DNA of 64,000 nt, taken from contig JBFWJC010000001.1 in NCBI GenBank assembly GCA_050253415.1, positions 352,001 through 416,000 on the forward strand. Direction: 5' to 3'. Position numbers and translations under genes: made by a program. The notes beneath the pieces were generated by a model. The model made no database searches, was not told where the DNA came from, and was given only the letters and a program-made list of their open reading frames with translations. Position 1 is the first letter of the stretch, and each line of letters begins with the position of its first letter. The stretch is from Pedobacter sp. Lineage in GTDB: Bacteria > Desulfobacterota > Desulfuromonadia > Desulfuromonadales > Syntrophotaleaceae. Positions 5,783 to 57,984 of this stretch are shown here, piece after piece.

Positions 5783-6826
5783 ATGGATAAGGGCCACCAG
5801 GAGAACGATGCGCTGCATAAAGGTGCCGGAGGTATGAACGGTGAGGCCGGATCCTGCCGGGTGGGGCCGGAGTCCGACTCCGAAGTTGAATTGCTGGATG
5901 CCTATTCGCGGGCGGTCATCACGGTGGCGGAGGCGGTAGGTCCTGCCGTGGTTGGGGTGTTTGCCGGCAAGGGGATGCGGGGCGGCGCCGCCGAGCCCGC
6001 CGGTGCCGGCTCCGGAGTCATCATCGCGCCGGACGGTTATATCCTCACCAACGATCATGTGGTGCAGGCTGCAACGCACCTTACCGTGATCCTGCAGGAC
6101 GGCACCTGTCTGGAAGCGACCCGGGTCGGTGCCGATCCGGCCACCGACCTGGCGGTGCTGCGTGCCGAAGGATCCGGTTTGCCTTACGTCGGCATGGGGG
6201 AATCAAAGCATTTACGGGTCGGACAGCTGGTGATCGCCATCGGCAACCCCTTCGGTTTTTCATCCACGGTGTCCACCGGGGTGGTGAGTGCGCTCGGACG
6301 GGCCCTGCGCAGCCGTGAAGGGCGTTTGATCGAAAACATCATCCAACATACCGCGCCACTTAATCCGGGCAATTCGGGTGGCCCGCTGGTTGACGCCCAC
6401 GGTCTGCTGGTGGGGGTGAATACCGCGATTATTGCCCAGGCCCAGGGGATCGGATTTGCTATTCCGGCAGCTACCGCTCGCCTGGTGGTCGCAGAGTTGA
6501 TGATCCACGGCCGGGTGCGACGGGCTCACCTCGGTCTGGTCGGCCAGCCGCGCCCTCTGCCCCGTGCCCTGGCGCGCCGACTCCACCTGAAGGAAGCGGC
6601 CGCCGTTGAAGTGGCAGCGCTTGATCCGCACGGGCCAGCTGCCCGGGCCGGCCTTTGCAAGGGCGATCTGATCATCTTTCTTGGCGGTCAGCCTATCTCC
6701 AGCATCGACGATATCCACCATCTGCTGGCCGAGTGGACGATCGGCGAACCGCTGCCGGTGGTCATCCTGCGCGGCGATGAGCAAAGAGATTTCCAGTTGG
6801 TGCCGATGGACGCTTCCGGAACCTGA
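5783..6826 (+). CDS. HtrA/DegQ-like trypsin serine protease with one PDZ domain
   Basis: GSGVII, LTNDHVV, DLAVL and NPGNSGGPL; C-terminal PDZ domain. Confidence 0.93.
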   Translation: MDKGHQENDALHKGAGGMNGEAGSCRVGPESDSEVELLDAYSRAVITVAEAVGPAVVGVFAGKGMRGGAAEPAGAGSGVIIAPDGYILTNDHVVQAATHLTVILQDGTCLEATRVGADPATDLAVLRAEGSGLPYVGMGESKHLRVGQLVIAIGNPFGFSSTVSTGVVSALGRALRSREGRLIENIIQHTAPLNPGNSGGPLVDAHGLLVGVNTAIIAQAQGIGFAIPAATARLVVAELMIHGRVRRAHLGLVGQPRPLPRALARRLHLKEAAAVEVAALDPHGPAARAGLCKGDLIIFLGGQPISSIDDIHHLLAEWTIGEPLPVVILRGDEQRDFQLVPMDASGT

Positions 6827-39428: not shown

Positions 39429-39851
39429 TGTTCGTTACCTTTCGACCTTGCAGTGCATCTGATATGTGCTTGCCGTTGATCTAGTCTTCGGCCGGTTTCA
39501 TCATCGCATCAATTGTGGTTTGACGTCCATAACTGTTTGATATGCCCGATCTTTGGGGGTTTGAAAGTTGGGATGTGTAAACCACTATTCTTCCATGATA
39601 ACGCCAAAAATGGCCGTGTACAGTTTTGTTCGAGAGGCGTTTCATACGGAGCGGCAGCTTTGGAATCCGCATTGTGTCTACGCTTTTTGCGATGGGGTCA
39701 ATTGGGGACGGAATGGAACGAATATGTAAAAAAATCCCCTTTCAGGTACAAGAAATCGTGTTAAAATGCTTTCCCTGTTTTGCCCTGTATCCTTTGTTTT
39801 TAAATACGTGCAGTGCCATCTTTGACAGGCGAGGCACAAGGAGGCCATCCC

Positions 39852-41573
39852 ATGACCCTTAGCGATCTTATCGTCCACTATCTTGAACAGTTCGGCGTGG
39901 AATATGTTTTCGGCATTCCCGGTAGTCCGCTTGGTCCCCTGTTCGATGCCCTCAAACGTAGCGAACAGCGTGGCGGGCCGCGCATGGTGCTGACGCGCCA
40001 TGAAGCCGGCGCGGCTTTCATCGCCGACGGTTATGCCCGCGAAAGCGGCAAGCTAGGGGTATGCTGCGCCACCACCGGCCCCGGGGCCACCAACCTTATT
40101 ACCGGGGTGGCTTCCGCTTATGCCGAACAGGTGCCGATGCTGGTCATCACCCCCCAGACCCGCTTGCGCGATCTGGGGTTCGGTTGTTTTCAGGATTCGT
40201 CGCGCAACGGTATCGATACGGTGAGCATGTTCGAGCCATGCACCGTTTACAATGCCAGCGTGACCCATCCCCACCAGTTGGAGAGAAAGCTGACGGCGGC
40301 ACTGACCGCAGCTTTCGGTACACCGAGGGGCCCTGCCCATCTGTGTATCCCCATCGATGTTTTTGCTGCCGAGGCTGAAGTACCGCTGCAATTTCCCCAT
40401 TTGAGGGAACTGCTCGAACGTCCCCGGGCGTTCCTGGATACCCGTGGTGTAACGAGCTTGTGCGAAGAGGTTTCCGGTGCGCTGAATCGCGGTGCCAGAC
40501 TCTGCCTGCTGGCCGGCCATAACAGCATCGGTGCGGGTCGCGAAATCGAAAGGTTTGCGGAGTTGACCGGGGCGTCCCTGCTTACCACACCGCGCGGCAA
40601 GTCGGCCATCAACCCCTACCATCCCCGGGCCCGTGGTGTGTTCGGCATGGCCGGACACAGTTCGGCCCGTGCTGCGCTGGCGGATGAGCAGGTCGAACTG
40701 ATCCTGGCCGTCGGCACCAATCTGGGCGAATGGTCGACCTGCAAGTGGGACCCGGTGCTCATGAACCATAAACTGGTGCACATTCATAATGACCGCCGCT
40801 GTTTCAGCCGGTCCCCCATGGCTCGCCTGCAGGTGGAAGGGGATATTGCCGCTCTGTTCACGCAGCTCAACACCTGCCTGGAAACGTTGCAACACGAAGG
40901 GCGACTGACCCTGCGCAATGCCGGGATGGGTTCTGTGGCGGCTGCAGCCGAGAGCTACCTGCCGGCAGGTATCACCGTTAACAAACCGGCCTGTTGCGAT
41001 ACGGTGCGTAGCGATGCGCCGATCAAGGCTCCCCAGGTGTATGCCGAGTTGATCCGGCGGTTGCCGCAGGAAACCCGGTTTTTTATCGATAACAGCAACA
41101 GCGTGCCCTGGTCGATCCACTACTTTTTCCACCCCCGACCGGAGAACTATCATCTGTCCATCGAATTCGCCACCATGGCCTGGGCGGTGGGCGCTGCAGT
41201 CGGTGGCGCTTTCGGTAACCGCCAGGCGCCGTCGGTGTGCCTGGCCGGAGACGGATGTTACCTGATGAGCGGCCAGGAGATCACCGTGGCGGTGGAAAGG
41301 CAGTTGCCGGTTATTTTTGTGGTGCTCAACGATCAGGGTTACGGGCTCATCAAGCACGGACACCGGCTTGCCGGCAAGGAGCCGGTCGACTTTTCGATTC
41401 CTCCGGTCGATTTTGCCATGATGGGTCGCGCGGCCGGTGCCGATGCCCAGACCATCCGCAGCATGCGGGACTTCGACAATCTGGACTGGCAGGCTCTGGC
41501 CAGCCGTCAGGGACCGACGTTGCTGGAGGTCATTATCGACCCCGAGGAACAACCCACTATCGCCATGTCCTGA
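39852..41573 (+). CDS. Thiamine diphosphate-dependent enzyme (acetolactate synthase large-subunit-like)
   Basis: VFGIPG, RHEAGAAF, TGPGATN and GDG...VLND; AGGAGG RBS. Confidence 0.88.
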   Translation: MTLSDLIVHYLEQFGVEYVFGIPGSPLGPLFDALKRSEQRGGPRMVLTRHEAGAAFIADGYARESGKLGVCCATTGPGATNLITGVASAYAEQVPMLVITPQTRLRDLGFGCFQDSSRNGIDTVSMFEPCTVYNASVTHPHQLERKLTAALTAAFGTPRGPAHLCIPIDVFAAEAEVPLQFPHLRELLERPRAFLDTRGVTSLCEEVSGALNRGARLCLLAGHNSIGAGREIERFAELTGASLLTTPRGKSAINPYHPRARGVFGMAGHSSARAALADEQVELILAVGTNLGEWSTCKWDPVLMNHKLVHIHNDRRCFSRSPMARLQVEGDIAALFTQLNTCLETLQHEGRLTLRNAGMGSVAAAAESYLPAGITVNKPACCDTVRSDAPIKAPQVYAELIRRLPQETRFFIDNSNSVPWSIHYFFHPRPENYHLSIEFATMAWAVGAAVGGAFGNRQAPSVCLAGDGCYLMSGQEITVAVERQLPVIFVVLNDQGYGLIKHGHRLAGKEPVDFSIPPVDFAMMGRAAGADAQTIRSMRDFDNLDWQALASRQGPTLLEVIIDPEEQPTIAMS

Positions 41574-44480: not shown

Positions 44481-45821
44481 TTAGTCGCAATCCGCCACCA
44501 TTCCAACCTTGTTATCCAGATACACTTTTCGGCGTCGCCACAGATAAAACGGCAGGCCGGCCAAGGTAATCAGGATGCCGAGCAGCGAAAGCCCGGGATT
44601 GGTCCAGCCGATCTGCACCAGGATGCACAGATAGGCGGTCACGAAAACCAGCGGTACCAACGGGTAGCCCCAGGTGCGATAGGGGCGCGGGGCATGCGGT
44701 TGCCGCCGGCGCAAAACGAACAGCGCCACGCCGCTGGCTATGCTGGATAACACCATGACAAACACAACGTAGCTCAGCAGCTGGTCGAAGGTGCCGAGCA
44801 GTACCAGCAGGCAGGCCAGAACCGCTTGAATCAGCACGGCACAAGCCGGAGTTCGGTAAAGAGTGTGAACCTCCTTCAGGCAGGACCAGAAAACCCCATC
44901 CTCCCCCATGGCAAAAGAAACCCGCGCACCGGTCATGATGGTGGCGTTGATGCCGGCTGCAATCGCCAGCACGATGGGGATCGAAACAAGTCCAGCTATG
45001 CCAGATCCGTAAAGCCTGACCATGGCGGCCTGGGCGACGTTGACCACGTTATTCAGTTCGGCCATGGGCAGGGCGAGCAGGTAAACCAGGTTGATCAGAG
45101 TGTAGATCAGCGTCACACTCAGGGTTCCCAGGATCAGTGACAGGGGCAGGTTGCGCTGGGGATTTTGGATTTCGCTGCCCATGTAGGCCGAGGCGAACCA
45201 GCCGCTGTAGGTAAAGATGACCGCGATCATGGGGGTGGCGAACAGCCTGCCAGGGTCCGGTTGCACTGCACCGGCCGCAGACAGATGCCGCCAGTCGCCA
45301 CCTCCGGCCACAAAGCCGGCGACGATCAAAACCAGCAAGGTTAGAATGGTGCCGAGGGTGAAAACATTCTGGGTCGTGCCGCTCAGGCGGATGCCCCGGT
45401 AGTTGATCAAGGAAAACAGCAGGATAAACGCCATTGCCATGAACTGCTTGTCTGCCTCCCTCAGAAACGGCAGGAAAATTTTCAGATAACTGACCAACCC
45501 GATGGCCAGCGCGGCGATGGATCCGGGGTTGATCACCCAGAACAGTACCCAGCCGAGCAGAAAACCGGCCCAGGGGCCATAGGCGGCTTTCAGGTAATGA
45601 TAGTCGCCGCCGGCCTTGGGGTACATACCGGCCAGTTCGGCATAGGTCAGGGCCCCGCAGATGGTCAGCAGGCCGCCCAGCACCCATATGCCGAGGAACA
45701 TCCAGGGGTGGGGCAATTCCCTCGCCAGAAAACCGCTGGTGGTAAAGATCCCGGCCCCGATGACGTTACCGATGATCAACAGGTAGGCATCTCCCAGGTC
45801 GAGCCGACGATTCAGTTGCAC
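44481..45821 (-). CDS. APC family amino acid permease
   Basis: IGNVIGAGIF, YAELAGMYPKAGG, FTYSGW and RPYRTWGYP. Probable GTG start at 45821 overlaps the upstream stop. Confidence 0.9.
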   Translation of the reverse strand: MQLNRRLDLGDAYLLIIGNVIGAGIFTTSGFLARELPHPWMFLGIWVLGGLLTICGALTYAELAGMYPKAGGDYHYLKAAYGPWAGFLLGWVLFWVINPGSIAALAIGLVSYLKIFLPFLREADKQFMAMAFILLFSLINYRGIRLSGTTQNVFTLGTILTLLVLIVAGFVAGGGDWRHLSAAGAVQPDPGRLFATPMIAVIFTYSGWFASAYMGSEIQNPQRNLPLSLILGTLSVTLIYTLINLVYLLALPMAELNNVVNVAQAAMVRLYGSGIAGLVSIPIVLAIAAGINATIMTGARVSFAMGEDGVFWSCLKEVHTLYRTPACAVLIQAVLACLLVLLGTFDQLLSYVVFVMVLSSIASGVALFVLRRRQPHAPRPYRTWGYPLVPLVFVTAYLCILVQIGWTNPGLSLLGILITLAGLPFYLWRRRKVYLDNKVGMVADCD

Positions 45822-47482
45822 GCTGCGTTTCCTTCCGCCAGGCATGAGCCTATGTAGATCAGGCCGAGCATCTTTTCCTTTTGGTCCTGCGCGGCTTTGC
45901 GCATCTCGCCAAGGGTGATGGATATCTGGTGTTCGCGGCTACGGATGCCGGCGGCATAGACCAGCCGCACCGGCGTATTATCGGCAAAATGGGTCCGTAG
46001 CAACGATTCGAGTTCCGGCACATCCTGCAACCCCATGAAGATGGCCAGGGTGTCGCCGTTTTTCGCTACGGCCGCAAGGAGTTCGTCGTTGCGACGCAGA
46101 CCGCGCGGCGCGGTAATCACGGTGGAGCCGTTGGCGCTGATATCGCGGTTGATAACCGCATTGGCGGCATTAAGGGAGCTGAGCCCGGCCACGGTTTCGA
46201 TTTCGGCCTCATCCAAATATTCCCTGATCCAGCGGGAACTGCCGTAAATCATCGGGTCGCCCCAGTCGAGAAATGCCACGTTCTTCCCCGCATCCAGTGC
46301 CTTGCGGATCTTGCCTGCATTGGTGCGCCACTCCTCTTGCCGCAACCGGTCCCGTTCCGTCTCGGACAGGGGTGTTTTGCGGTCACGATCCGCAAACGCA
46401 AACGGATCGAACAGCACCTCCTTGCCGCTGAGGTAAGTGGCGAAGCGTTTTTGTATATCCCCCGGTACCGCAATGGCATCGGCCCGTGCCAACGCCGAAA
46501 GGGCTTCGAGGGTGATCTGGCAGGTGTCGCCGGCGCCGACGCCGATCACGGTCAGCTTCGGGACATGCCGGGGGCGCAGCACCTCGATGGATGCCACGTC
46601 GCGCACGAAACGGCTGGCAGACGAATCGGGCAGCACCAGCCATCGTGCATGCTTTTCTCCAAGGGGCTGGCCGCCCATGCGGTCAGCAAGCAGAATCCGC
46701 CGACCGAGGGGCGACCAGAACAATTCCCCGTAGGACAGCAGCGATCGATAGCCATCACGAGATCGGACCAAAAAGACGGTTTGGGGTTCCGCGCCCACCC
46801 CGGCCTGTTTCAAAATATCCACCAGCGGCGTACCGGAAAAACGCTTTACGCCGTCAAAACGGGTGCCGTTCCAGACGATCTTGGTAGTGACTTCAGAGAT
46901 CGATTGGTTGGGTCGTTTTGCCAGTGATACGGGCTGTATCGCGGCATCCCGTGTCGGATCGATCACCTCGATGCTGACGATATCGGTCAGGCAGCGGTCG
47001 CTGTAAAAGTCGTTGCCCAGCACCAGGCGTGGCAGGACGAGCGGTTTTGGTACTAGCGTGGGAGTCTCTTTGGTATATATCGGTGTTGCGGAAAAGGCGA
47101 TGATCACATCGGCCGGACGACCATACGCCACCTCCGCCCACGACAACAGGGTGCGTTGGCCTTGACGATTACGCACCACAAGGGCGAGGTCGATGGCCTT
47201 GGGGAAGGTTCCACCTTCTTTTTCCACTCCGGCAGCCTGCAAAAGATATTGCAGAGGTACGCCCTGGTAGCGATAGACACCATGAAAGGTATTCTGGGTG
47301 GCGACCTCGGTGGTGCGGACCTCCACCGTCCGGTAGTTGGCCAAGTCCTTCAGGGTCAGGCGCTGGGGGTGCTTGACCAGACCGGTGATCGTGACTACCG
47401 GTTCGGCTGCTGCCTGGCAGACAGTGAGTCCGCAGGTAAAAAATAGATACGAAATTACCAGCAATAACCGCAGGTATTTCAT
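45812..47482 (-). CDS. Exported molybdopterin-oxidoreductase-like domains fused to a tetrapyrrole methyltransferase domain (paralog 2, no CxxCH)
   Basis: Signal peptide MKYLRLLLVISYLFF...CQA; ITGLVKHP, YQGVPL and SRDGYRS; C-terminal VIGVGAGD and VAFLDWGDPMIYG. Confidence 0.78.
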   Translation of the reverse strand: MKYLRLLLVISYLFFTCGLTVCQAAAEPVVTITGLVKHPQRLTLKDLANYRTVEVRTTEVATQNTFHGVYRYQGVPLQYLLQAAGVEKEGGTFPKAIDLALVVRNRQGQRTLLSWAEVAYGRPADVIIAFSATPIYTKETPTLVPKPLVLPRLVLGNDFYSDRCLTDIVSIEVIDPTRDAAIQPVSLAKRPNQSISEVTTKIVWNGTRFDGVKRFSGTPLVDILKQAGVGAEPQTVFLVRSRDGYRSLLSYGELFWSPLGRRILLADRMGGQPLGEKHARWLVLPDSSASRFVRDVASIEVLRPRHVPKLTVIGVGAGDTCQITLEALSALARADAIAVPGDIQKRFATYLSGKEVLFDPFAFADRDRKTPLSETERDRLRQEEWRTNAGKIRKALDAGKNVAFLDWGDPMIYGSSRWIREYLDEAEIETVAGLSSLNAANAVINRDISANGSTVITAPRGLRRNDELLAAVAKNGDTLAIFMGLQDVPELESLLRTHFADNTPVRLVYAAGIRSREHQISITLGEMRKAAQDQKEKMLGLIYIGSCLAEGNAACN

Positions 47483-47509
47483 TGCAACCTCTCTTTCAAA
47501 TAATATAAA

Positions 47510-47553
47510 GGGCAGGTTCGCGACAGATCATCCCCGTTGTCGCGAACCTGCCC
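47510..47553. repeat. 16-bp perfect inverted repeat between the two paralogs
   Basis: gggcaggttcgcgaca-N12-tgtcgcgaacctgccc. Confidence 0.75.
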
Positions 47554-47609
47554 CTGCTTATCCACTGGCCGTGTTGCTTGCGCTCCGGATGAAGCGTGTT
47601 ATGCCCGGT

Positions 47610-49412
47610 TTAATGGCACTCGCCGAACCGCACATTCAGGCGCGGCCCCATGTAGATCAGGCCGAGGAATTTTTCCGGTTCGGCTGCCAGGTGGGCCGCC
47701 GCTTGTTGCAGGGTGGTGCGTACCAGGCGTTCACTGCCTGCGACGCCGGCACTGTAGACCAGGTTGACCGGAGTCTCGGCGGAATAATGGCTGTCAAACA
47801 AGGGTTGCATGTCCTGGAATTCCTTCAATCCCATAAAGATGGCCAGGGTATCGCCGCTTTTTGCCAGGGCGGCAAGCAACTGCGGATTTTGTTTCAGACC
47901 GCTCGGCACGGTGATGACCACCGATCCTCCGGCTCCGACGTCGCGCTGGATCATGGCATTGGCCACGTTGAAGGCACTCAGGGCGGGGATGGTTTCGAGC
48001 TGGTCGTCGCTGAAGAAGGCCCGGATCCAGCGGGTGCTGCCGTAGATCATCGGATCGCCCCAGTCCAGAAATGCGACGTTTTTCCCCTCCTTCAGCGCCT
48101 GGCGGATTTTGGCCACCCCCGCCTCGCGTTGCAGGCTGCAGCGTTTATCCGCCTCGGCCGGTGTTAGCTCCGGGTGGGATTTGCGATACATGTGCTGGAT
48201 GAGCACCAAGGGGTCGAACAGCACCGGTTTGTCGCCCAGGTAGGGGGCATAGCGCTTGGCGATATCCGCCGGGGCTACCAGCACGTCAGCGCGCGCCAGG
48301 GCGCCGATAGCCTCCAGGGTGATCAGATCGGTATCACCCGGCCCCACGCCGATGATGGAAATTTTTGCCGCCGGTTTCAGGTCGACGACCTCGATACGCG
48401 CGACGGCCAACACATCCCGATCATCGACCAGTTCCTCGGGTACGATAATGCGGTATTTCCCGCCGCGCTGACCTTCCAGAGTTTTGCCATTGTCACTTTC
48501 GGCGATCATGATGCGCCGGCCCTTAAAGGACTGGAACAGTTCGCCGAAGGAAAACAATGCCCGGTATCCGTCCGGGGCGGAGATCATCACGGCTTTGGTC
48601 AGTTGCTCACCGGCGCCGGCCGCCTCAAGAATCTTGGCCAGAGAAATGCCTTTGTAGCGGTGCAGGCCGTGGTATCCCATATGCACGCCGACGACCTTCT
48701 TCATCATTTCCATACGAGGGTAGTCTTTGAGGTCGGACAGTTTCAGTTCTTTGGCCACCGCACCGGTCACCCGGATTTCCCCGGATTCAAGCTTGGCCGC
48801 ACGATCGACCTTGAGTTTGGGATACAGATCGATGACCTCGATGCGGGTAACGTTTTCCAGGCAACGGTCGGTGTAAAAGTCGCCGCTGAGCAGCAATTTG
48901 GGCATGCCTGCCGGGCGGTCGTATTCGATAAGGGACTTCCGGTAGATTTCCGGGCCGTGGCATTTTAGGCAGCGATCCTCGGTCATCATCGGCTTGACCG
49001 GGGTGGCGGCAAAGGCGATGGTCACTTCGGTGGCATTGCTATAGTAGACTTCGCCCCAGGACAGCACCACCTGCTTGCCGGAAGCATCGGTCACCCGGAT
49101 GGCCAGATCGATCGGTTTTTCAAACGGCTGGTCCTGTTTGACGATTTCAGCCATGTCCAGCAGGGTGCGCAGCGGTACGGCTTTGTGCAGATATACGCCA
49201 TGAAACTTGCCGTCTCGGCTGACCTCGTTGAGCTGAATCTCTACCGACTGAAAGCGGGCCAGATCGTCGGTGGATAATTTGAGGGGGCGTTTGACCTCAC
49301 CGGTGATGCTCATGACCCCTTGTGAAGCCGTCTGCTGATCGGCCGCCAGGCTTTGATGAAAGGCCGGCAAAACAGCCAGTAACGTAAGCAGGGTAACGGC
49401 CATGCGTTTCAT
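47610..49412 (-). CDS. Exported molybdopterin-oxidoreductase-like domains fused to a tetrapyrrole methyltransferase domain, with CxxCH (paralog 1)
   Basis: Signal peptide MKRMAVTLLTLLAVL...SLA; two repeats (ITGEVKRP.../VTGAVAKE...APDGYRA); CLKCH; IIGVGPGDTDLITLEA and GDPMIYG. ATGA overlap with the upstream gene. Confidence 0.8.
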   Translation of the reverse strand: MKRMAVTLLTLLAVLPAFHQSLAADQQTASQGVMSITGEVKRPLKLSTDDLARFQSVEIQLNEVSRDGKFHGVYLHKAVPLRTLLDMAEIVKQDQPFEKPIDLAIRVTDASGKQVVLSWGEVYYSNATEVTIAFAATPVKPMMTEDRCLKCHGPEIYRKSLIEYDRPAGMPKLLLSGDFYTDRCLENVTRIEVIDLYPKLKVDRAAKLESGEIRVTGAVAKELKLSDLKDYPRMEMMKKVVGVHMGYHGLHRYKGISLAKILEAAGAGEQLTKAVMISAPDGYRALFSFGELFQSFKGRRIMIAESDNGKTLEGQRGGKYRIIVPEELVDDRDVLAVARIEVVDLKPAAKISIIGVGPGDTDLITLEAIGALARADVLVAPADIAKRYAPYLGDKPVLFDPLVLIQHMYRKSHPELTPAEADKRCSLQREAGVAKIRQALKEGKNVAFLDWGDPMIYGSTRWIRAFFSDDQLETIPALSAFNVANAMIQRDVGAGGSVVITVPSGLKQNPQLLAALAKSGDTLAIFMGLKEFQDMQPLFDSHYSAETPVNLVYSAGVAGSERLVRTTLQQAAAHLAAEPEKFLGLIYMGPRLNVRFGECH

Positions 49413-50176
49413 GATTTTTGTCCTCCGTTGCGAATCTTGCGAATTTGCGGAAAGTACCAGAGCATCAGCAGGCACAGGATCGTATTGCCGATCAGTATCA
49501 GCAACAGACCGGGATCCTTTTTAACGGTGATTTGAAGGGCCGGCAATACGTCAACGCCGGGTTTGCCGGCCATCCCCAGATGCAGGGTGTAGCCCTGCCA
49601 GTAAATTGGTTCGAGAATGGCGATCTGGCGTTGCACGACGTCGGTCCCGTGTTTCAGCTCCAGGGTGGCCGTGCATTGCTTCATGGTTCCCAAAAGAAGG
49701 GGTTCCCGCCAGTATTCGTAGTGGCGTTCGAGCAAGGTAACCTGAAGATCGTTCACGGTGACTTGTTCTCCGACCACGGCCGGCAGGCGTTGCTTGCTGC
49801 CAGTGAATTCGGTAAGGGCATGACCGCCGATAATAAACAAAAAGCAGAAGTGCATGATGGACGGAGCCAGCAGCAGTGCCAAGATGGCGCGGCGATGCTG
49901 ACCTCGGTGTTGCCAGAGCCAGGTCAGGCGTTGCAGGGTACAGGCGGCGGTATTCACGCCCAGCAGGAAAAGCAGGCCGAACAGCGAAAAGATCCACCAG
50001 TTCTGTATTCCGTTGTGGTGCATGATCCAGGAGGGAAAGAGTTGAGCGTTGAGTTTGCCGAATACCGGCATGTACCGGGTGTAAAAGCTACCGATAAATA
50101 GATTGACAGTCAGCAGGCACAGCAACCATAACGTCAGACGAATACTGGCCATGGACGTCCAGAGTCGTTTAATCAT
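49409..50176 (-). CDS. Short ResB-like cytochrome c biogenesis protein
   Basis: ASIRLTLWLL, NTAACTLQR, His in IMHFCFL, and KKDPG. Confidence 0.75.
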   Translation of the reverse strand: MIKRLWTSMASIRLTLWLLCLLTVNLFIGSFYTRYMPVFGKLNAQLFPSWIMHHNGIQNWWIFSLFGLLFLLGVNTAACTLQRLTWLWQHRGQHRRAILALLLAPSIMHFCFLFIIGGHALTEFTGSKQRLPAVVGEQVTVNDLQVTLLERHYEYWREPLLLGTMKQCTATLELKHGTDVVQRQIAILEPIYWQGYTLHLGMAGKPGVDVLPALQITVKKDPGLLLILIGNTILCLLMLWYFPQIRKIRNGGQKS

Positions 50177-51029
50177 TGCCGACCTCCGTCAGTTTGGAGT
50201 TGCGACAGGCATTCGGTACCGCCCCATGCACCTGCTGGGCTGCGGTAGCCTGAGTGTTGTTGCCGGAGGACTTGGCCGGATTAAGCACGGTAAGATGCGC
50301 CGCCACCTGCAGGGCGTAAGCCACAACCAGCACCACCAGTGCCCCGGACACCGCCCAGCGAGCTTTTTTGCGCAGGTCGAAGGCGCGGTCAAAGTGGGTA
50401 TGCAGGTAGCCGCAGTACAAACACCAGATGGCGGCGGATTGCAGATGCCGTTCTCCCCAGTGAAACGCCGCGCCCCAACCGAGATAACTCCAGACCGCAC
50501 CGATAACCTGGGCCAGGCTGTAAAAGATGAAGCCCCAGATCACCAGTTGGTTGAACAACGGATCGCCGTCGCGACGACGCAGATGGCGCCAGGCGAGCCA
50601 GCCACCGGCCAGGAAACAGGCGATGGCCAGCACTTCAAGGAAGAAAAACAAAGGGGAAGACCAGTTGGCGGTAAACGGTCCGGGTGGCGGAATCTGCACC
50701 GGCAGCGCCAGAGTGGTTAACATCGTCAGCGTCACCAGCCAGCTCAGAGAGGCCGCCTGTTGCCGCTGGCCGCGCCACAGGCATAATAGCGCCAACATAG
50801 CCAGGCACCAAGGCAGAAACAGCGCACCGTTAAAGACTCCGTCGAGGGAGAAAATCCCCCAGCGCCAGCAACGGCCGAGCTGGCTGGTGGTGTGCAGCAT
50901 AAATCCGAGCCCCAGCAGCCAGCATGAAAAACGAAACTTTTTCAGCAGATAAAAGATAAGGCTGCCGGCGTAAACGCCGGCAGCCACATTGAATAACATC
51001 GCGGAGGTAGTCGCTAAAGTCATGCACAA
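50169..51029 (-). CDS. CcsA/ResC-like cytochrome c assembly protein (divergent)
   Basis: TM-rich; degenerate WWD region GAVWSYLGWGAAFHWGER and YLH. Confidence 0.78.
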   Translation of the reverse strand: MCMTLATTSAMLFNVAAGVYAGSLIFYLLKKFRFSCWLLGLGFMLHTTSQLGRCWRWGIFSLDGVFNGALFLPWCLAMLALLCLWRGQRQQAASLSWLVTLTMLTTLALPVQIPPPGPFTANWSSPLFFFLEVLAIACFLAGGWLAWRHLRRRDGDPLFNQLVIWGFIFYSLAQVIGAVWSYLGWGAAFHWGERHLQSAAIWCLYCGYLHTHFDRAFDLRKKARWAVSGALVVLVVAYALQVAAHLTVLNPAKSSGNNTQATAAQQVHGAVPNACRNSKLTEVGND

Positions 51030-51065
51030 TCCCTCGTTGTGGAAGGTTCTGTTTTCATAACAGGA

Positions 51066-53069
51066 TCAGTAGGTGAAGTTGAGGCCGGCCAGGAAGTTGC
51101 GGCCGGGAGCCGGTTGACCGACCTCGTAATAATCACGATCGGTGATATTGTTGACTTCTACAAAAGCAGTCCCTTCCACCCCCAAGAGCTTGCCGAGTTT
51201 CTGCTCGGCCCGGGCATTGAGCAGCAGGAAGTCCGGGGACTGCGTCCACTCTTCAATAAGAGCAGTCGGAGTGTAAGTATTCTTATTAGCGTACTGCCGG
51301 TTTACATAGGAGAGTTGGGTACTGAGGTTGAGCCCGAAGGGGAATCGGTAGCGCAGGTCCAGATTGGCGCGATGGCGCGGCCTCCCTTCCAGCTCGCGGT
51401 CATTTTCCTTGTCTTCGGTGCGCATGTAGGTGTAATTCAGCCCGGCCCAGAACGCCTCGGTGATGTCGGCGCCCAAGGAAACCTCTATCCCTTTGGTGAC
51501 GGCCTCGCCGATATTGATATAAACCGTTTCGCCATCAATTTTATCCTTATCGATGAGGTCTTCGATGTCATTGTAAAAGGCCGCTACCGAAAGAGTTATA
51601 TCCTCGCCGAAGGCTTGGGTCAGGCCGACCTCATAAGTGATGGTTGTCTGGGGGTCGAGATCGGGGTTGCCGCCAATTAATTCGCTGTACAGCTCCTTGA
51701 GATGGGGGAAACGGGTTTTTTTGCCGATGGAGCCGTGGAGGGTAGTGCTCTCCGACAGAGTGATAACCACACCACCCTGGGGATTGATGGCATCGATAGC
51801 TTTCGTCAGCTCCCGACCGGTGGCTTCACGCGGATCGTAATAGTCGTAGCTTACCCCTACCACGAACGCGAGCCAGTCGAGAGGTCGCACCTCGTCTTCG
51901 ATCCCGATGGAGTAGGTATTCGCCGCAAAGGTCTCCCAGGGCGACCAATCGTTTTCATCTAGCGGTTCTTCTTTGTCCCGTTGTTTGGTTTCGTCTCGCA
52001 CAAACGAGCCACCGATCTTGAGGTAACTCCAGCGACCAAAGTCCATGAAAGCCTGCAGTTCACCGCCGGTGCTGTAATTTTCATAAGGGGATAATACATA
52101 AGGTTTCTTTAGACTTTTTGGATATTCACCAAATCGCCCATACATTTCGTCATCGTGGCTGACATAAAATGCGCGGGCTTTGAGCCGCAGCCAGTCGGTC
52201 ACCTGCTGCTCGCCAACCAGGCTCAATTGCCACTGCTCCCATTCGTTAAAACGCCACAGGGGCCGATTCGGCACCCCCTTCTCATTGTTGTAATAGTTGA
52301 AGGTCAGATAGAGTTTAGTCTCCTCGCTGGGCTCATAACCGAGTTTAAAATTGACATGGTGCTGCAGGTAATCGCTTCGATCCCGTTTGCCGCCATCTTC
52401 CGGTGCTTCCAGTTGGTCAGCCCACCAATCCTCATCATAATCGCTGGACAGCCGCCAGCCATTGGAATGGCGGTAGCTGTACCCGGCGTATACAGTGAAG
52501 TCGCCGATCGGAGCTCCGGCACTAACGGAATAGTGCTGGGTGCCGTAGTCACCCCAGGCAGTGCTGGCCGTGGCCATTGGTTTAGACGCGGTCTTGGTGA
52601 TGATATTGATGACCCCGCCCATGGCATTGGGCCCGTACAACACGGATGAGGCGCCTTTGGTGACGGTGATCTTGGCAACATTGTCGATGGGGAATTGGGC
52701 CAAGTCGATAAGACGTGAATATTGCTCGTAAACCGCCACACCATCGATCATTATCTTGACATCTTCACTATTAAAACCACGAATGCTGACGTAGCTTTCG
52801 CCCTTTTTGGAACCTCTCTGCACGAAAACGCCCGGCAATTGTTGCAACGCGTCGGCCACGGTCTGGGCGCCGCGCTGTTTAAAATCCTCCTCGGTTACTT
52901 CCGTAACAGTGGTGGCCAGATTGGCCACCTGTTTTTCCCCGCTGACGATAACCTCGCCCAGGGTAAATACGTCATCAGTGGCTACCTCCTCTGCCGCCAG
53001 CGCCGGCCAAGCTGCCAGTAAACAACCGGCCAGCACCCACGCCGACCACCAAATACGTGTTTTTGTCAT
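51066..53069 (-). CDS. TonB-dependent outer membrane receptor
   Basis: Signal peptide, LGEVIVSG TonB-box region, SIRGF, KGASSVLYGPNAMGGVINIITK and C-terminal PGRNFLAGLNFTY; AGGAGG RBS. Confidence 0.93.
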   Translation of the reverse strand: MTKTRIWWSAWVLAGCLLAAWPALAAEEVATDDVFTLGEVIVSGEKQVANLATTVTEVTEEDFKQRGAQTVADALQQLPGVFVQRGSKKGESYVSIRGFNSEDVKIMIDGVAVYEQYSRLIDLAQFPIDNVAKITVTKGASSVLYGPNAMGGVINIITKTASKPMATASTAWGDYGTQHYSVSAGAPIGDFTVYAGYSYRHSNGWRLSSDYDEDWWADQLEAPEDGGKRDRSDYLQHHVNFKLGYEPSEETKLYLTFNYYNNEKGVPNRPLWRFNEWEQWQLSLVGEQQVTDWLRLKARAFYVSHDDEMYGRFGEYPKSLKKPYVLSPYENYSTGGELQAFMDFGRWSYLKIGGSFVRDETKQRDKEEPLDENDWSPWETFAANTYSIGIEDEVRPLDWLAFVVGVSYDYYDPREATGRELTKAIDAINPQGGVVITLSESTTLHGSIGKKTRFPHLKELYSELIGGNPDLDPQTTITYEVGLTQAFGEDITLSVAAFYNDIEDLIDKDKIDGETVYINIGEAVTKGIEVSLGADITEAFWAGLNYTYMRTEDKENDRELEGRPRHRANLDLRYRFPFGLNLSTQLSYVNRQYANKNTYTPTALIEEWTQSPDFLLLNARAEQKLGKLLGVEGTAFVEVNNITDRDYYEVGQPAPGRNFLAGLNFTY

Positions 53070-53268
53070 AACTCCTCCTTGCAATAAAAATGGAATTTCC
53101 CTGACAGGCATGGGTTGCCTGCGGGAAACTCAGGGTTAGTCACACCTCTTACAGAAAACTTTTGGTAAAACATTCATCAAAATCCGAAAGCGACCAGGCG
53201 GGTTAAATCCGCCCGTCTCCAGCAATAAAATTAAAATTCTTTATCTAATTAAGTGTGATGTCTGAATT

Positions 53269-53292
53269 GGATATATTGCTGGGTACATAACG
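53269..53292. promoter_or_regulatory. ModE-type operator upstream of the TonB receptor cluster
   Basis: GGATATATTGCTGGGTACATAACG contains TATAT-N7-TACAT followed by AACG. Confidence 0.62.
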
Positions 53293-53699
53293 CAAGGCGT
53301 CTCAAATTGCGGATGTGCCGCATTGCCATAGATTCATGGGGGAGAATCGAAGTATTTATGAAGTTGGGTGGATATGGAAGGCAGGAAAGAGCCGCAAGAC
53401 TTGCGACCGCCTCTAGGAGGAAAGACGGTGCAAGACTCTCGCAAAATTTTTCCCAGCTTTCGCTGTATAGCAAACGGAATAACGCCATGCAAGTAAAAAA
53501 GCATTTTAAGTTTAATTATTTAATGTATACCTTGACGAATTCCCAATTCGGCATTCCCATGGCGGGACGGACAGGGGGCTCCGGATCATGCAAGGGTCCT
53601 ATGCCCACCGATAGATCATAAAACGCCAGGATGTTGCAGCATCCTGTGTGTTGCCTGCTACAATCGTAGAAAATGCAGCGCGAGACGAAAGGATGTCCC

Positions 53700-54056
53700 A
53701 TGACCCAAAAAGGTTACCTGTGGATGACGACATTGTTGGTGGTGACGGTGCTGCTTGCCGCCTGTGCGGGCAGGATGGCGGCGCGGTCGCTTCTGGATGA
53801 GGACTATGCCGTCATGAGCGATGAAGAATTATTGGTGTATTACGACCAGGTAAGTGAAGCGATCGCAAAGGAAGAAGGCGGAGGGGGTGGTTTCGGTCTG
53901 GGGTTGGGGCTCGGGGTTGGCAGCGGTTCGTTTTCGGTGGGTGCCAGCCAGGGGATGTATGTGGATGATCCGACCGAGCAGTTGCGAGTCCGACGCAATC
54001 AGGTGCGTCTTGAGTTGGCCAGACGAGGTCTGCAACCCCAAGGCACGCCGCAGTAA
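53700..54056 (+). CDS. Small lipoprotein with Gly-rich segment
   Basis: Lipobox LLAAC and GGGGGFGLGLGLGVGSG; AAAGGA RBS. Confidence 0.75.
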   Translation: MTQKGYLWMTTLLVVTVLLAACAGRMAARSLLDEDYAVMSDEELLVYYDQVSEAIAKEEGGGGGFGLGLGLGVGSGSFSVGASQGMYVDDPTEQLRVRRNQVRLELARRGLQPQGTPQ

Positions 54057-56163: not shown

Positions 56164-57984
56164 TCAGTCTTGCCGGACCTGGGAAAGAAGTTCCATGTCC
56201 AGCCCGTTATATTCGAAATACTCGCGTTCGAGCTCTTCCACGTAAAAACGGTCCAGTCCGCTGTTTTTGAGGAAGTCGTCGCGTAACGCATCATCTCGAC
56301 CGGCAATAATGCGCGGCAGTAGATTGTGCAGATACAACTCCTCCATCTGGACATGATGCACCACGCGGCGGAAAAGCTTGTGCAGCAATTCTTCATCGAT
56401 GGTTCCGTTAAGACCTGTTTCGCGTACCACTTCTGCCTGCAGTTGTTCCCGTTCCTGGGCAGTGCTGTACCGGGAATAAAAATTGCGAATCCGTTCCTTG
56501 GTGTGGCTCAGCAAGGTGTTGAACAGTTCTTCCTGCTTGCAGATGTCGTTGAGGAGCCGTTGCATCCCTTGCAGGGTCAGTCTGCCTTCCTCTATGGCCG
56601 CCAGTCCCTTACGCAGGGCCAGCAGCTTACGGCGGCCGAATTGCCCAAGATAGTGGTTTTCCAGAATTCCGCTGAAGAAGAGTTCATCGAACAATTCGCC
56701 GCCCAGCACGTCGAATTCTTTTTTGTTATTCAGCAGGCTGCGCACCAGCTCTTCGGTAAATCGTATCTTGTCCATGAAGGCAAGCTGGTTAATATGCTCC
56801 GAGGTACTGTCGAATCGGTCGAAGTAGGTGATGATCCACGAGAAATTTTCTACCAGAAAGACATCGGCGCCATCGCGCATCTTTTCGTCGCAGGCCTTGG
56901 CCGCCTCAAGTAACATCTGTTCAAAAGCGTAGTCGCGGCCTTCCACTGCACGTCGCTTGGCTTTAAGTAATTGTACCAGGTCTTCGCGGTCGATGCGGGC
57001 ATCGATCTGCCGCTCATGTAAAAATATCCCCTCGAGAATCTGGCGCGTTTCCGACAGGTAATCCTGTTCGTCGGCGCTGGTCAACAATTCCGGCTTGAGT
57101 ACTTCGTCCATGGCATAAAACAAAGCCGAAGGGATTTTGCTGCGCACCGACAGGGTCTTGAGGCGGGTTAAACGGGCATTTTCAGCTGTCCCGATACGTC
57201 CTTTGAGCTTGCACTCGACCAGGATGTTTTTGTACTCGTCAACGATGCGTCGATTGGCCGCATGCTTGTACATAACGTCGATGCGGATGCGTTCTTGCTG
57301 GTAACTGTCAATGCCGAGGGTATCAGCCAGTTTTACAAGCTTGGTAAATTCCGGGTCGGGGATGTTCTGGTAGGCGTGATAAAGTTCCCGAAAAGCATCG
57401 TGATAACGTCTGTGCTTGGTGTTGATAAGCTTGATCAGATACAGGGCGCTGCGATGCCCGAGAAGCGGAAGTAGTTCTTCGATCAACTGGGCATCGTCCC
57501 CTTCGCCGATGAAGGGAAAGCGTTTCAGATCCTTGCCCGCCAGGCGCAGAATCTCTGCCTGCTGTTCCTGCAAAAGACCCGATACCGAGCCGAAGATGAA
57601 AAAGTAGTAGTTGTGAACGGCATTGCCTTCCAGAAAAACACGGTCGTATTCCTCGTAGCCGTCGGTGCGGCTGGAAAACATCAGTGCGCCGTCCTCGCGG
57701 CTGCTGGTGCCGAACATGACCAGTCGGTTACGCACTTCTTCCTTTATAAGATCGGCTAGCGGTTGCTCCACACCGAACATGTATTCGCAGAATGAGCCAC
57801 CGTTGCCGCGATGCGTCAGGCCTTCAGCATCGAGAATCAGCTCGTTCCCGGGGGAGAAAATACGCAGGGATTGTCCGGATGCTTCGTAGAAATAACTGCG
57901 ATAGGCCTCGGGCGAGGCAATGGTGACATAGTATTCGATACTGTCGTTGATCTGGCCGTGGAGGCGTACTTCCTGATGTTTCAT
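56164..57984 (-). CDS. Conserved ~600-aa hypothetical protein (TIGR04442-like, from recall)
   Basis: 606-aa ORF coupled to its neighbours; HRGNGGSFCEYMFGVEQP, YQQERIRIDVMY and SGLDRFYVEELEREY. Family call is from memory and unverified. Confidence 0.7.
   Translation of the reverse strand: MKHQEVRLHGQINDSIEYYVTIASPEAYRSYFYEASGQSLRIFSPGNELILDAEGLTHRGNGGSFCEYMFGVEQPLADLIKEEVRNRLVMFGTSSREDGALMFSSRTDGYEEYDRVFLEGNAVHNYYFFIFGSVSGLLQEQQAEILRLAGKDLKRFPFIGEGDDAQLIEELLPLLGHRSALYLIKLINTKHRRYHDAFRELYHAYQNIPDPEFTKLVKLADTLGIDSYQQERIRIDVMYKHAANRRIVDEYKNILVECKLKGRIGTAENARLTRLKTLSVRSKIPSALFYAMDEVLKPELLTSADEQDYLSETRQILEGIFLHERQIDARIDREDLVQLLKAKRRAVEGRDYAFEQMLLEAAKACDEKMRDGADVFLVENFSWIITYFDRFDSTSEHINQLAFMDKIRFTEELVRSLLNNKKEFDVLGGELFDELFFSGILENHYLGQFGRRKLLALRKGLAAIEEGRLTLQGMQRLLNDICKQEELFNTLLSHTKERIRNFYSRYSTAQEREQLQAEVVRETGLNGTIDEELLHKLFRRVVHHVQMEELYLHNLLPRIIAGRDDALRDDFLKNSGLDRFYVEELEREYFEYNGLDMELLSQVRQD

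Follow-up and report, generated by a model that had tools for sequence, protein, structure and literature searches.

A conserved gene module of anaerobes with exported SUOX-methyltransferase fusion proteins is probably a new route for tungsten or molybdenum acquisition

In anoxic sediments and digesters, syntrophy, the respiration of sulfur and metals, and carbon turnover are driven by enzymes of tungsten and molybdenum (W/Mo), among them formate dehydrogenases, aldehyde oxidoreductases and acetylene hydratase. Here we describe a cluster of six genes in Pedobacter sp. (GCA_050253415.1, contig JBFWJC010000001.1), located at positions 44481-53292 of a 64,000-nt stretch of this contig (the window), that is probably a new route for W/Mo acquisition in anaerobes. 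It encodes a TonB-dependent outer-membrane receptor, a pair of membrane proteins resembling CcsA and ResB, two exported proteins (Fus1 and Fus2) in which SUOX-fold domains are fused to a class III S-adenosylmethionine (SAM) methyltransferase, and a LAT-type permease. The closest described systems each resemble one part of this set. The receptor has the plug and 22-strand-barrel architecture of BtuB and CntO (metal-pseudopaline), and TupABC under the control of a riboswitch for the molybdenum or tungsten cofactor (Moco/Tuco), or of a TunR-type regulator, shares with relatives of the module its regulatory logic and neighbourhood. The class III fold and the SAM-binding motifs are those of CbiF/CobM and CbiL/CobI, and the permease finds its best sequence matches among the BasC/SLC7 LATs, which are obligate exchangers. 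The membrane pair recalls CcsBA (ResBC, system II), in whose CcsA subunit a WWD motif (WGxxWxWDPKE) is flanked by two heme-ligating periplasmic histidines. The N-terminal domains of the fusions are, in size and shape, most like PruR (PDB 7rkb, 7kou, 7kom, 7kp2), a small exported SUOX-fold domain without the Mo-ligating cysteine. PruR has been described as a periplasmic, Cys-less, truncated SUOX-fold pterin binder with a PW motif, a stacking Tyr/Trp and an Asn, encoded in a pruR-dcpA operon (PMC11194511).

No characterised system combines these parts, and the core proteins have no characterised counterpart; they join SUOX domains without Moco to a class III methyltransferase that is exported. 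Compared with the described Tup, Mod and Wtp systems, none of which has such components, the module adds an energised outer-membrane step and the exported SUOX-methyltransferase proteins, and in its own genome it is unlinked from Tup-like genes. Unlike BtuB and CntO, the receptor falls below all curated family cut-offs and is controlled by Moco/Tuco riboswitches in relatives. The SUOX domains differ from PruR in being arranged in tandem and fused to a methyltransferase, in having Glu or Lys where PruR has Trp at the cysteine position, in lacking a DcpA-type cyclase/phosphodiesterase partner and in standing in a W/Mo context instead of biofilm signalling. The fusions differ from CbiF/CobM and CbiL/CobI by their export, their attached SUOX domains, a gene position away from the cob cluster and scores that fall far short of the equivalog cut-offs. 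The membrane pair departs from CcsBA in having another sequence in place of the WDPKE core and neither of the periplasmic histidines, in missing the large periplasmic domain of ResB and in occurring with some client fusions that have no CxxCH. The permease gene, unlike those of BasC/SLC7 LATs, lies within a metal-linked operon directly behind an exported methyltransferase. A first-pass annotation of the window knew of no assigned function for the gene set. Our literature searches likewise found none beyond a remark in a 2012 genome paper, whose supplementary Table S4 may list the genes; the cluster had thus already been noted in print, with no function given (PMC3543383).

In our preferred reading the receptor imports a scarce W/Mo species, the exported fusions handle it in the periplasm, and the operon is switched off when W/Mo is sufficient. 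We estimate the probability of this reading at about 0.55. The module appears to be a W/Mo-responsive system of anaerobes, with tungsten as the more likely metal; import by the receptor and processing by the fusions are inferred.

The distribution of the module was determined starting from Fus1. A word-index search gave 427 relatives, and among the best 120 of these, in which the domains were examined, 117 carried both domains and the other three were SUOX-only proteins of 363-370 aa. The top protein matches were from Syntrophotalea (Pelobacter) carbinolica, S. acetylenica and Syntrophotaleaceae; the organism resembles Syntrophotalea/Pelobacter. Scanning one genome per species confirmed 129 of 151 pattern matches as relatives, from which 78 loci were kept. 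Sixty of them (L007-L066), with matches at the level of the whole fusion, were taken as members, and 18 (L067-L084), which matched in the methyltransferase domain only at 25-30% identity and were mostly from Chamaesiphon, were left out. At least five phyla contribute to the 60 loci, and among the groups represented are Desulfuromonadales, Desulfobulbaceae, Smithella, Syntrophus, Syntrophorhabdus, Desulfonema and Desulfarculaceae, as well as Nitrospirae/Thermodesulfovibrionales, Spirochaetota/Leptospirales and Acidobacteriota. Searching them with the six window proteins (tblastn) revealed three layouts: receptor, CcsA-like protein, ResB-like protein, one or two fusions and permease; a shorter order of receptor, fusion and permease; and a spirochaete version without permease, consisting of receptor, a lipoprotein with the SUOX tandem only, the membrane pair and a fusion. 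With counts based on single high-scoring segment pairs (HSPs), detection reached 27 of the 60 loci for the receptor, and the same number for the pair and for the permease. The recurrence of gene order across these loci and several phyla bears out the co-conservation that the first-pass annotation had proposed to check, and this co-conservation is far beyond chance. The distribution is patchy: in an even sample of 301 genomes from the phylum of the window, 26 (about 9%, own genome included) had a match at E<=1e-30, and there was no match in the same-order and same-class genomes among those listed.

The neighbourhood of the module points to W/Mo metabolism. We called and clustered 690 open reading frames (ORFs) in the 60 loci. 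Recurrent neighbours included 22 ORFs of the PBP_like_2 family in 14 loci, which at 216 bits stay below the 400-bit cut-off of NF041772 and are therefore called TupA-like instead of TupA equivalogs. Others were TupB-like permeases (168.5 bits for NF041773, cut-off 320) and, in 12 loci, HTH_17+PBP_like regulators, an architecture that we take to be that of the tungstate-responsive TunR; the name TunR and its response to tungstate reportedly go back to Kazakov et al. in 2013. FmdE and molybdopterin oxidoreductases occurred in three loci each, and ExbB, ExbD, TonB and ABC ATPases also recurred, with a dedicated ExbB/ExbD/TonB set encoded alongside the module in 18 of the 60 loci, a feature shared with the TonB-dependent metal and cofactor receptors. 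Taking as markers the TupA/TupB-like genes, the HTH+PBP regulators, FmdE and a P3-less Moco/Tuco riboswitch directly upstream of the receptor, and applying the stricter single-HSP tblastn definition, we found at least one in 24 of the 60 loci; among the 25 loci with a length of 15 kb or more, the number was 16. Since genomes of this size have few such marker genes, a chance neighbour within 9 kb should be rare. In two Thermodesulfovibrionales/Nitrospirae loci, TupA-like genes stood in tandem directly after ExbB-ExbD-TonB genes, four of them in L018 (6409-10201) and two in L016 (16860-18612).

A Moco/Tuco riboswitch or a TupA neighbourhood marks a W/Mo cofactor economy. Searches with Rfam found the Moco/Tuco riboswitch (RF01055) in five of the 60 loci (L008, L010, L011, L024 and L025), each time immediately before the receptor gene. 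Of these, L008, L010 and L011 are from Desulfuromonadales and have the gene order of the window, with Fus1 proteins 74, 72 and 76% identical, respectively, and their aptamers are followed by a terminator-like hairpin. In L024 and L025, from Leptospirales/Spirochaetes, the receptor gene is divergent from the fusion gene. The P3 hairpin was deleted in the three RF01055 alignments that were inspected, and the L008 and L011 matches were both 120 nt long. According to Regulski et al., P3-less Moco RNAs segregate almost perfectly with tungsten-cofactor metabolism (PMC2408646). These riboswitches and the TupA, TupB and HTH+PBP regulator neighbours bear out the Mo/W link, which had been a guess in the first-pass annotation.

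The own genome of the window has four RF01055 matches (C1:1369619, C1:1063628, C3:12346-12467 and C1:727300). They are 119-122 nt long, like the P3-less examples, and each lies before a paralogue of aldehyde:ferredoxin oxidoreductase. This is a tungsten enzyme family, and the organism invests heavily in tungsten enzymes. Furthermore, an HTH_17+PBP_like regulator, a TupA-like gene and an MFS_MOT1-type molybdate transporter lie in a row at C1:1077515-1080732, and a ModE-like box is found about 60 nt upstream of a second PBP_like_2 gene. It is unusual to find a periplasmic binding protein paired with a carrier of the MOT1 family. As a separate observation on riboswitches, in L029, an uncultured Pelobacter metagenome-assembled genome with a receptor-fusion-permease cluster, a c-di-GMP-I (GEMM-I) riboswitch lies at 6210-6290 (+), about 160 nt upstream of the receptor ORF.

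Fus1 and Fus2 are 44% identical. Both match TP_methylase (PF00590; 133.9 and 139 bits, cut-off 27.8) and Oxidored_molyb (PF00174; 46.8 and 43.9 bits), and both begin with a Sec-type signal peptide without an RR motif. Homologues of Fus1 are about 600 aa long, supporting the MKRM start at 49412; no larger fused forms (1051-3000 aa) were found, which is weak evidence. Fus1 has a single CxxCH (CLKCH, residues 148-152, window 48971-48957), and the motif is absent from Fus2. The methyltransferase domain aligns to CbiF 4e16 (E 1.5e-20) and to further corrin methylases, its fold matches include CbiF, NirE and CysG, and the SAM motifs GxGxGD and GDP.iYG are invariant or nearly so in 11 diverse fusions. 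The scores against the cobalamin equivalogs are low (TIGR01465, 80.6 against 259.65; TIGR01467, 79 against 163.25), and the cob-type methylases of the genome are encoded at C1:745-767 kb, apart from the cluster. Identity with CobM/CbiF or CobI/CbiL was rejected on the sub-cut-off scores, the signal peptide and the position outside the cob cluster. Stand-alone exported halves also exist, namely methyltransferase-only proteins with a signal peptide in Smithella and a spirochaete, and SUOX-tandem-only proteins with a lipobox in spirochaetes; in the 301-genome sample of the phylum both halves likewise occur singly. Since stand-alone methyltransferases are exported as well, the domain is by its sequence features an extracytoplasmic protein by design.

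The N-terminal 317 residues, modelled from 17 sequences, were predicted with a pLDDT of 90.7 to form two SUOX-fold domains. In VIA-align the model resembled SorA 2blf (Z 15.8, root-mean-square deviation (rmsd) 2.5 A, 137 aligned), SoxC 2xts (Z 15.6) and PruR with neopterin 7rkb (Z 14.8, rmsd 1.9 A, 122/146), followed by PruR 7kp2 (Z 13.7), chicken SO (Z 12.7) and YedY (Z 11.8). Foldseek concurred with the SUOX fold (E 1.3e-7), a sequence search of the PDB with the N-terminal profile gave only marginal SorA matches (E 0.09), and in the ESM Atlas the tandem matched only unnamed or Oxidored_molyb clusters (0.92). As read from the alignment, the place of the Mo-ligating cysteine is taken by Glu in domain 1 (N62/E63) and by Lys in domain 2 (K239). 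Both residues, E63 and K239, show no variation among the 11 fusions, and neither fusion alignment has an invariant cysteine. A DGYR motif is invariant in domain 2 and, in an alignment by eye, may correspond to the pterin-stacking Tyr of PruR; the PW motif of PruR is absent and the position of its stacking Trp is variable (W/D/T/N/F). Sec export excludes a folded enzyme preloaded with Moco. A Moco-containing sulfite dehydrogenase was rejected on the export route together with the Glu/Lys replacement and the lack of an invariant cysteine, and signalling of the PruR-DcpA type was also rejected; the cluster contains no GGDEF/EAL gene.

The receptor matches the Pfam families Plug (100.4 bits) and TonB_dep_Rec_b-barrel (148.8 bits), its probable start lies behind an AGGAGG ribosome-binding site, and its Sec-type signal peptide has no twin arginine. 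It is below all NCBIfam equivalog cut-offs, including those of the BtuB models (TIGR01779, 173 bits against 599.7; NF007926, 148.7 against 836). The top PDB sequence match is BtuB, in the plug region only (107 bits), and a cobalamin riboswitch was found by Rfam neither in the window nor in any of the 60 loci. A plain BtuB accompanied by cytoplasmic cobalamin methylases was therefore ruled out on the low BtuB scores, the lack of the riboswitch and the export of the fusions. The first-pass annotation was thus right to set the receptor apart from BtuB and to treat the fusions as exported proteins distinct from the cytoplasmic cobalamin enzymes, as their signal peptides and low cob equivalog scores indicate. 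Our literature searches found no paper describing a W/Mo-specific TonB receptor.

The permease is a member of AA_permease_2 (196 bits; TIGR00911, 207 bits against a cut-off of 701.8), and its top PDB matches are the BasC-type bacterial LAT homologue 6f2g (7.1e-55) and the light chains of human LAT1/2, y+LAT1/2 and xCT. In the 25-27 of 60 loci that carry it, the gene lies directly downstream of a fusion gene. In linked loci of several orders and of two phyla (Desulfobacterota-type lineages and Nitrospirae), its orthologues have 55-65% identity, and a second linked type shows 35-37%.

The CcsA-like protein scores just above the Pfam cut-off for Cytochrom_C_asm (PF01578, 33.9 bits against 29.9) and far below the one for TIGR03144 (41.7 against 187.6), and it has a weak match to the WWD region of CcmF (E 0.0084). 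Two canonical CcsA genes (184 and 174 bits) are present elsewhere in the genome. Aligned to their products, the CcsA-like protein has a degenerate WWD motif in which WDPKE is replaced by W[GS/other]xxH. A Trp-rich motif and a single invariant 'LH' histidine are retained in the family; the histidines in the canonical 'VHV' and 'GLHSY' positions, which we take to be the periplasmic heme ligands of CcsBA, are not kept in seven family members. Its 255-aa partner gave no Pfam or NCBIfam match at E<=0.01, and its profile had 0 matches to PDB sequences at E<=10. A likeness to ResB (PF05140) is seen at the family level: the window protein reaches 10.3 bits against a cut-off of 24.6, weak matches occur in 10 of 12 family members (best E 3e-5), and they are confined to the first ~84 of 486 profile positions, as the protein lacks the large periplasmic domain. 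Family invariants are WW, NT..C, H109, H119 and DPG, with H109 and H119 in a transmembrane segment. The two proteins are predicted to form a complex (ipSAE 0.85 against 0.00 for the best control, at least 90% contact agreement between runs, partner pLDDT at least 82). Among solved complexes, 116 of 157 attain the mark of 0.85, compared with 2 of 215 mismatched pairs; for this pair, the prediction may reflect likeness to solved CcsBA. Together with the Trp-rich motif, the 'LH' membrane histidine and the transmembrane histidines of the ResB-like protein, the predicted complex is what the pair shares with CcsBA.

The pair and the c-heme motif of the fusions vary in a way that bears on function. 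Fourteen loci have the pair and a CxxCH fusion, nine have the pair with CxxCH-less fusions only (L023, L026, L027, L045, L046, L048, L049, L050 and L052; L014 is a tenth by alignment), and in all 11 loci in which no pair is in view and the receptor abuts the fusion, the latter carries CxxCH. Because both periplasmic histidines are missing and the presence of the pair is independent of CxxCH in the fusion, the pair is probably not a dedicated heme lyase for it. That pair-less loci always have the c-heme motif suggests that the pair and the c-heme could be two routes to one need, for example a redox or heme partner. Of the overall picture given by the first-pass annotation, the conserved module, the exported fusions and the Mo/W link are therefore supported; its dedicated heme-ligation pair is not, and neither is its permease as an inward route for the product. 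The permease is a homologue of LAT-type exchangers, and no match above 35% identity was found in five genomes searched.

A mechanism consistent with these data can be outlined. The operon would be off when the cellular W/Mo cofactor or oxyanion suffices, in relatives through a P3-less Moco/Tuco riboswitch or an adjacent HTH+PBP regulator, and in the own genome probably through a ModE-type box overlapping the promoter. The receptor would import a species that TupA/ModA-type proteins cannot use directly: metal bound to pterin-dithiolene or its debris, a thiolated metalate from sulfidic water, or a metallophore complex. The two Cys-less SUOX-fold domains, which are nearest to PruR in size and shape, would hold this species, and the CbiF-like methyltransferase would alkylate the ligand with SAM and so free tungstate or molybdate; S-methylation of dithiolene or thio ligands would be the chemically simplest reaction. 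S-methylation occurs in Moco catabolism, and thiotungstates undergo alkylation. We favour alkylation because of this chemistry, the likeness of the fold to PruR, an intact SAM site and the many TupA genes nearby, and still place the sequence of import, holding and alkylation on the unlikely side. The oxyanion would then be taken up by TupA-like proteins and their inner-membrane partners, which other genomes encode next door in up to four copies. The LAT-type permease might exchange an amino-acid-like compound, the most economical guess being SAM outwards and S-adenosylhomocysteine (SAH) or a methionine-derived by-product inwards; this role is doubtful. The CcsA-like/mini-ResB-like complex, with membrane histidines only, may be a heme holder, an electron conduit or a porter of heme or a planar cofactor and not a cytochrome c synthase, which is possible at somewhat less than even odds. 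Taken as a whole, a chain in anaerobes of sulfidic or cofactor-rich habitats in which a Tuco-regulated receptor imports pterin-dithiolene-bound or thiolated metal, an exported methyltransferase guided by PruR-like domains S-alkylates its sulfur ligands to release tungstate for TupA, and a dedicated LAT-type SAM/SAH exchanger supplies the SAM is rather improbable.

Several observations weigh against W/Mo acquisition by the module. The nearest relatives of the methyltransferase are corrin C-methyltransferases, which favours a tetrapyrrole substrate, and we know of no periplasmic SAM pool. Nine of the 25 long loci have no W/Mo marker, and the receptor gene of L029 is preceded by a c-di-GMP-I riboswitch and not by a Moco/Tuco riboswitch. 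In the window, Rfam gave no match, so that the Moco/Tuco riboswitch is absent, and no Tup genes lie beside the operon: it is located at C1:396-405 kb and the nearest TupA-like genes at C1:179 kb and C1:1078 kb. Lacking both, the window copy is tied to W/Mo by orthology and a candidate operator. For the latter, the ModE-type protein of the genome consists of a 122-aa HTH DNA-binding domain only and scores slightly below the cut-off (97.3 against 98.5 bits), and ModE-like boxes occur genome-wide at 66 places with a loose regular expression and 12 with a strict one; a box of this kind is a candidate that by itself is not statistically compelling. Finally, in four fusion-carrying spirochaete/Leptospiraceae genomes the best permease match had 35% identity and in a fifth genome (that of L009) there was no match; since none of the five had a better one, the permease is, judged by its occurrence, an accessory that is inessential to the fusion chemistry.

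The corrin methylase relationship leads to the alternative that the module serves the synthesis or remodelling of a periplasmic tetrapyrrole. In this scheme, a macrocycle would be exported by the CcsA/ResB-like complex and modified by the CbiF/CbiL-like methylases, and the receptor would re-import it or take in a precursor; heme, a precorrin-like intermediate or sirohydrochlorin are candidates, and the macrocycle might itself be a W/Mo ligand. Aklujkar et al. 2012 speculated on a tetrapyrrole role for Pcar_0191, Pcar_0192 and Pcar_0195 (PMC3543383). The methylase domains are indeed closest to the precorrin-4 C11 and precorrin-2 C20 methyltransferases, BtuB is the best sequence match of the receptor, and the pair belongs to a heme-handling superfamily and, as it accompanies CxxCH-less fusions, needs a job besides attaching heme to them. 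Yet the scores are far under all tetrapyrrole-methylase equivalog cut-offs (e.g. 80.6 versus 259.65), the ordinary cob methylases of the genome are elsewhere, and many loci have the receptor directly abutting a fusion with the pair missing. Besides, the N-terminal domains are like pterin/Moco binders and unlike tetrapyrrole binders, and it is Moco/Tuco riboswitches, not cobalamin riboswitches, that occur in the loci. We consider a tetrapyrrole pathway improbable. The same N-terminal domains, each of which fits PruR with neopterin in fold and size (Z 14.8, rmsd 1.9 A), would also suit the scavenging of whole molybdopterin, Moco or Tuco from other cells, with a PruR-like carrier, re-use inside the cell and a methyltransferase that protects or traps the cofactor without metal release. 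Control by a cofactor-sensing riboswitch would be expected here too, and the invariant DGY(R) of domain 2 stands, by-eye, at the place of the stacking Tyr. Nevertheless, the PW motif and the stacking Trp of PruR are not conserved, an inner-membrane route for pterin is not evident, and the commonest neighbours are TupA-like oxyanion binders, which point to free tungstate as the product. Bacterial uptake of Moco has no precedent known to us, and we regard scavenging of the intact cofactor as decidedly improbable.

The SUOX fold, with SorA as top match, the CxxCH in Fus1 and the adjoining CcsA/ResB-like pair with its predicted complex could also be explained if the fusions were ordinary periplasmic molybdoenzymes, sulfite dehydrogenases like SorAB with a c-heme, and the pair their heme lyase. 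This is contradicted by the Glu (N62/E63) or Lys (K239), invariant or nearly so, in place of the Mo-ligating cysteine, by Sec-type signal peptides without twin arginine, through which a folded Moco protein is not exportable, by the loss of both periplasmic histidines from the CcsA-like protein and by the independent variation of CxxCH and the pair, and it is highly improbable.

Under the preferred reading, W/Mo import and periplasmic handling, the module is a concrete and testable candidate for how cells take up W and Mo when only sub-nanomolar amounts are present or when the metals are thiolated or scavenged in sulfidic water. If the whole chain up to the SAM/SAH exchanger held, it would be the first route of TonB-dependent W/Mo uptake and the first enzyme system in the periplasm to use SAM from a supply of its own, and it would put a degenerate CcsBA complex to new use. 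Should the link to the metals prove wrong, the exported SAM-type methyltransferase family and the histidine-depleted CcsBA-like complex would still be new biochemistry.

The coordinates of the genes and of the regulatory features are collected in Table 1. All six ORFs are minus-strand genes arranged head to tail at 44481-53111, and each of them, with its domains as found by Pfam and NCBIfam, was where the first-pass annotation had placed six co-directional genes.

Table 1. Genes and candidate regulatory features of the cluster; positions refer to the window.
Feature	Position	Strand	Basis or remark
Promoter-like block CTTGCA ... TATACA, ModE-like box overlapping	53461-53493	-	Kept in 6/6 orthologous upstream regions
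5' leader of ~390 nt	53070-53460	-	No recognisable riboswitch (Rfam)
ModE-like box of the first-pass annotation, CGTTATGTACCCAGCAATATAT	53292-53271	-	In the long 5' leader; candidate
TonB-dependent outer-membrane receptor	51066-53111	-	Pfam Plug and barrel; probable start 53069, 667 aa, signal peptide
CcsA-like membrane protein, divergent, 286 aa	50169-51029	-	PF01578, 33.9 bits
Mini ResB-like membrane protein, 255 aa	49409-50176	-	Weak family-level PF05140 matches; invariant H109/H119 in transmembrane segment
Fus1, exported, two Cys-less SUOX/PruR-like domains and class III SAM methyltransferase	47610-49412	-	600 aa from MKRM; ORF reaches 49475
Fus1-Fus2 intergenic hairpin and U-rich tract	47483-47609	-	Terminator/attenuator-like fold
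Fus2, Fus1 paralogue without CxxCH, 556 aa	45812-47482	-	Oxidored_molyb and TP_methylase
LAT/SLC7-type APC permease, 454 aa	44481-45845	-	AA_permease_2, 196 bits

The intergenic distances, in gene order, are 36, -8, -4, 127 and -34 nt, and the stop of the ResB-like gene and the start of Fus1 share an ATGA. The 127-nt gap between Fus1 and Fus2 contains a hairpin with an 18-bp stem (-51.3 kcal/mol, z -4.7, 0 of 200 shuffles as good), which a terminator scan overlooked because its loop exceeds 8 nt. Hairpins with U7 tracts and different stem sequences are present at the matching site in L007 (10845-10900) and L011 (8438-8488). The structure looks like a terminator or attenuator that would set the expression of Fus1 above that of Fus2 and the permease. 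As only 27 nt, containing the ribosome-binding site, separate it from the Fus2 start, Fus2 and the permease probably depend on read-through. In L009 (Pelobacter sp. UBA5610), the nearest relative in the species-level collection (Fus1 86% identical), the module ends after Fus1; beyond 10779 there are no genes for Fus2, the permease, glycosyltransferases or PsiE, and the sequence runs into a TPP-enzyme gene (window 39813-41573). The cluster is conserved and tightly spaced, in agreement with the six-gene unit proposed in the first-pass annotation, but given the conserved terminator-like hairpin and the lack of Fus2 and permease in L009, the gene arrangement is better described as 4+2 genes.

Upstream of the receptor gene, the promoter-like block reads CTTGCATGGCGTTATTCCGTTTGCTATACAGCG (53493-53461), and the overlapping ModE-like box is CGTTATTCC-N6-TATACAGCG. 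A regular expression picked out a single block of this kind ahead of the receptor in the window, and likewise one in each of L007-L011, with CTTG, CG.TAT, TTG and TA.A.CG as invariant columns in all six sequences; a simple promoter scan did not list it. A ModE consensus of the type CGnTATATA-N6-TATATAnCG and a Geobacter site have been described (PMC545781). The right half of the block has one mismatch to the half-site TATATAnCG and the left half is poorer, and we consider the block a candidate operator and transcription start region. The ModE-like box of the first-pass annotation (53292-53271) is present as a sequence, and its left half CGTTATGTA resembles the consensus and is kept in L007 and L009; its right half is poor and the block at 53493-53461 is the better candidate. 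The first ~70 nt of the leader (53390-53458, -) form a hairpin common to the window, L007 and L009 (RNAalifold on three close sequences with little covariation), which are the three relatives without a riboswitch.

Two near-palindromic ModE-like boxes of the CGTTATATTCC...GGAATAGCG type were found elsewhere in the genome, at C2:738608 and 740805. They lie ahead of the genes for a second TonB receptor (641 aa) and for a transporter of the ECF type with a duplicated ATPase and a CbiQ-like protein, and may belong to the same regulon as the cluster.

The flanks of the cluster are unrelated to it, and encode an EF-G paralogue, a 606-aa ORF without Pfam match, an MBL-fold protein, glycosyltransferases and PsiE. 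The 606-aa ORF (56164-57984, -) lies between the genes for the EF-G paralogue and the MBL-fold protein, and a member of the same family is found upstream in L007. A small lipoprotein-like gene without Pfam match (53673-54056, +), whose product has a Gly-rich middle GGGGFGLGLGLG, is divergent from the operon and is kept in five relatives (L007-L011).

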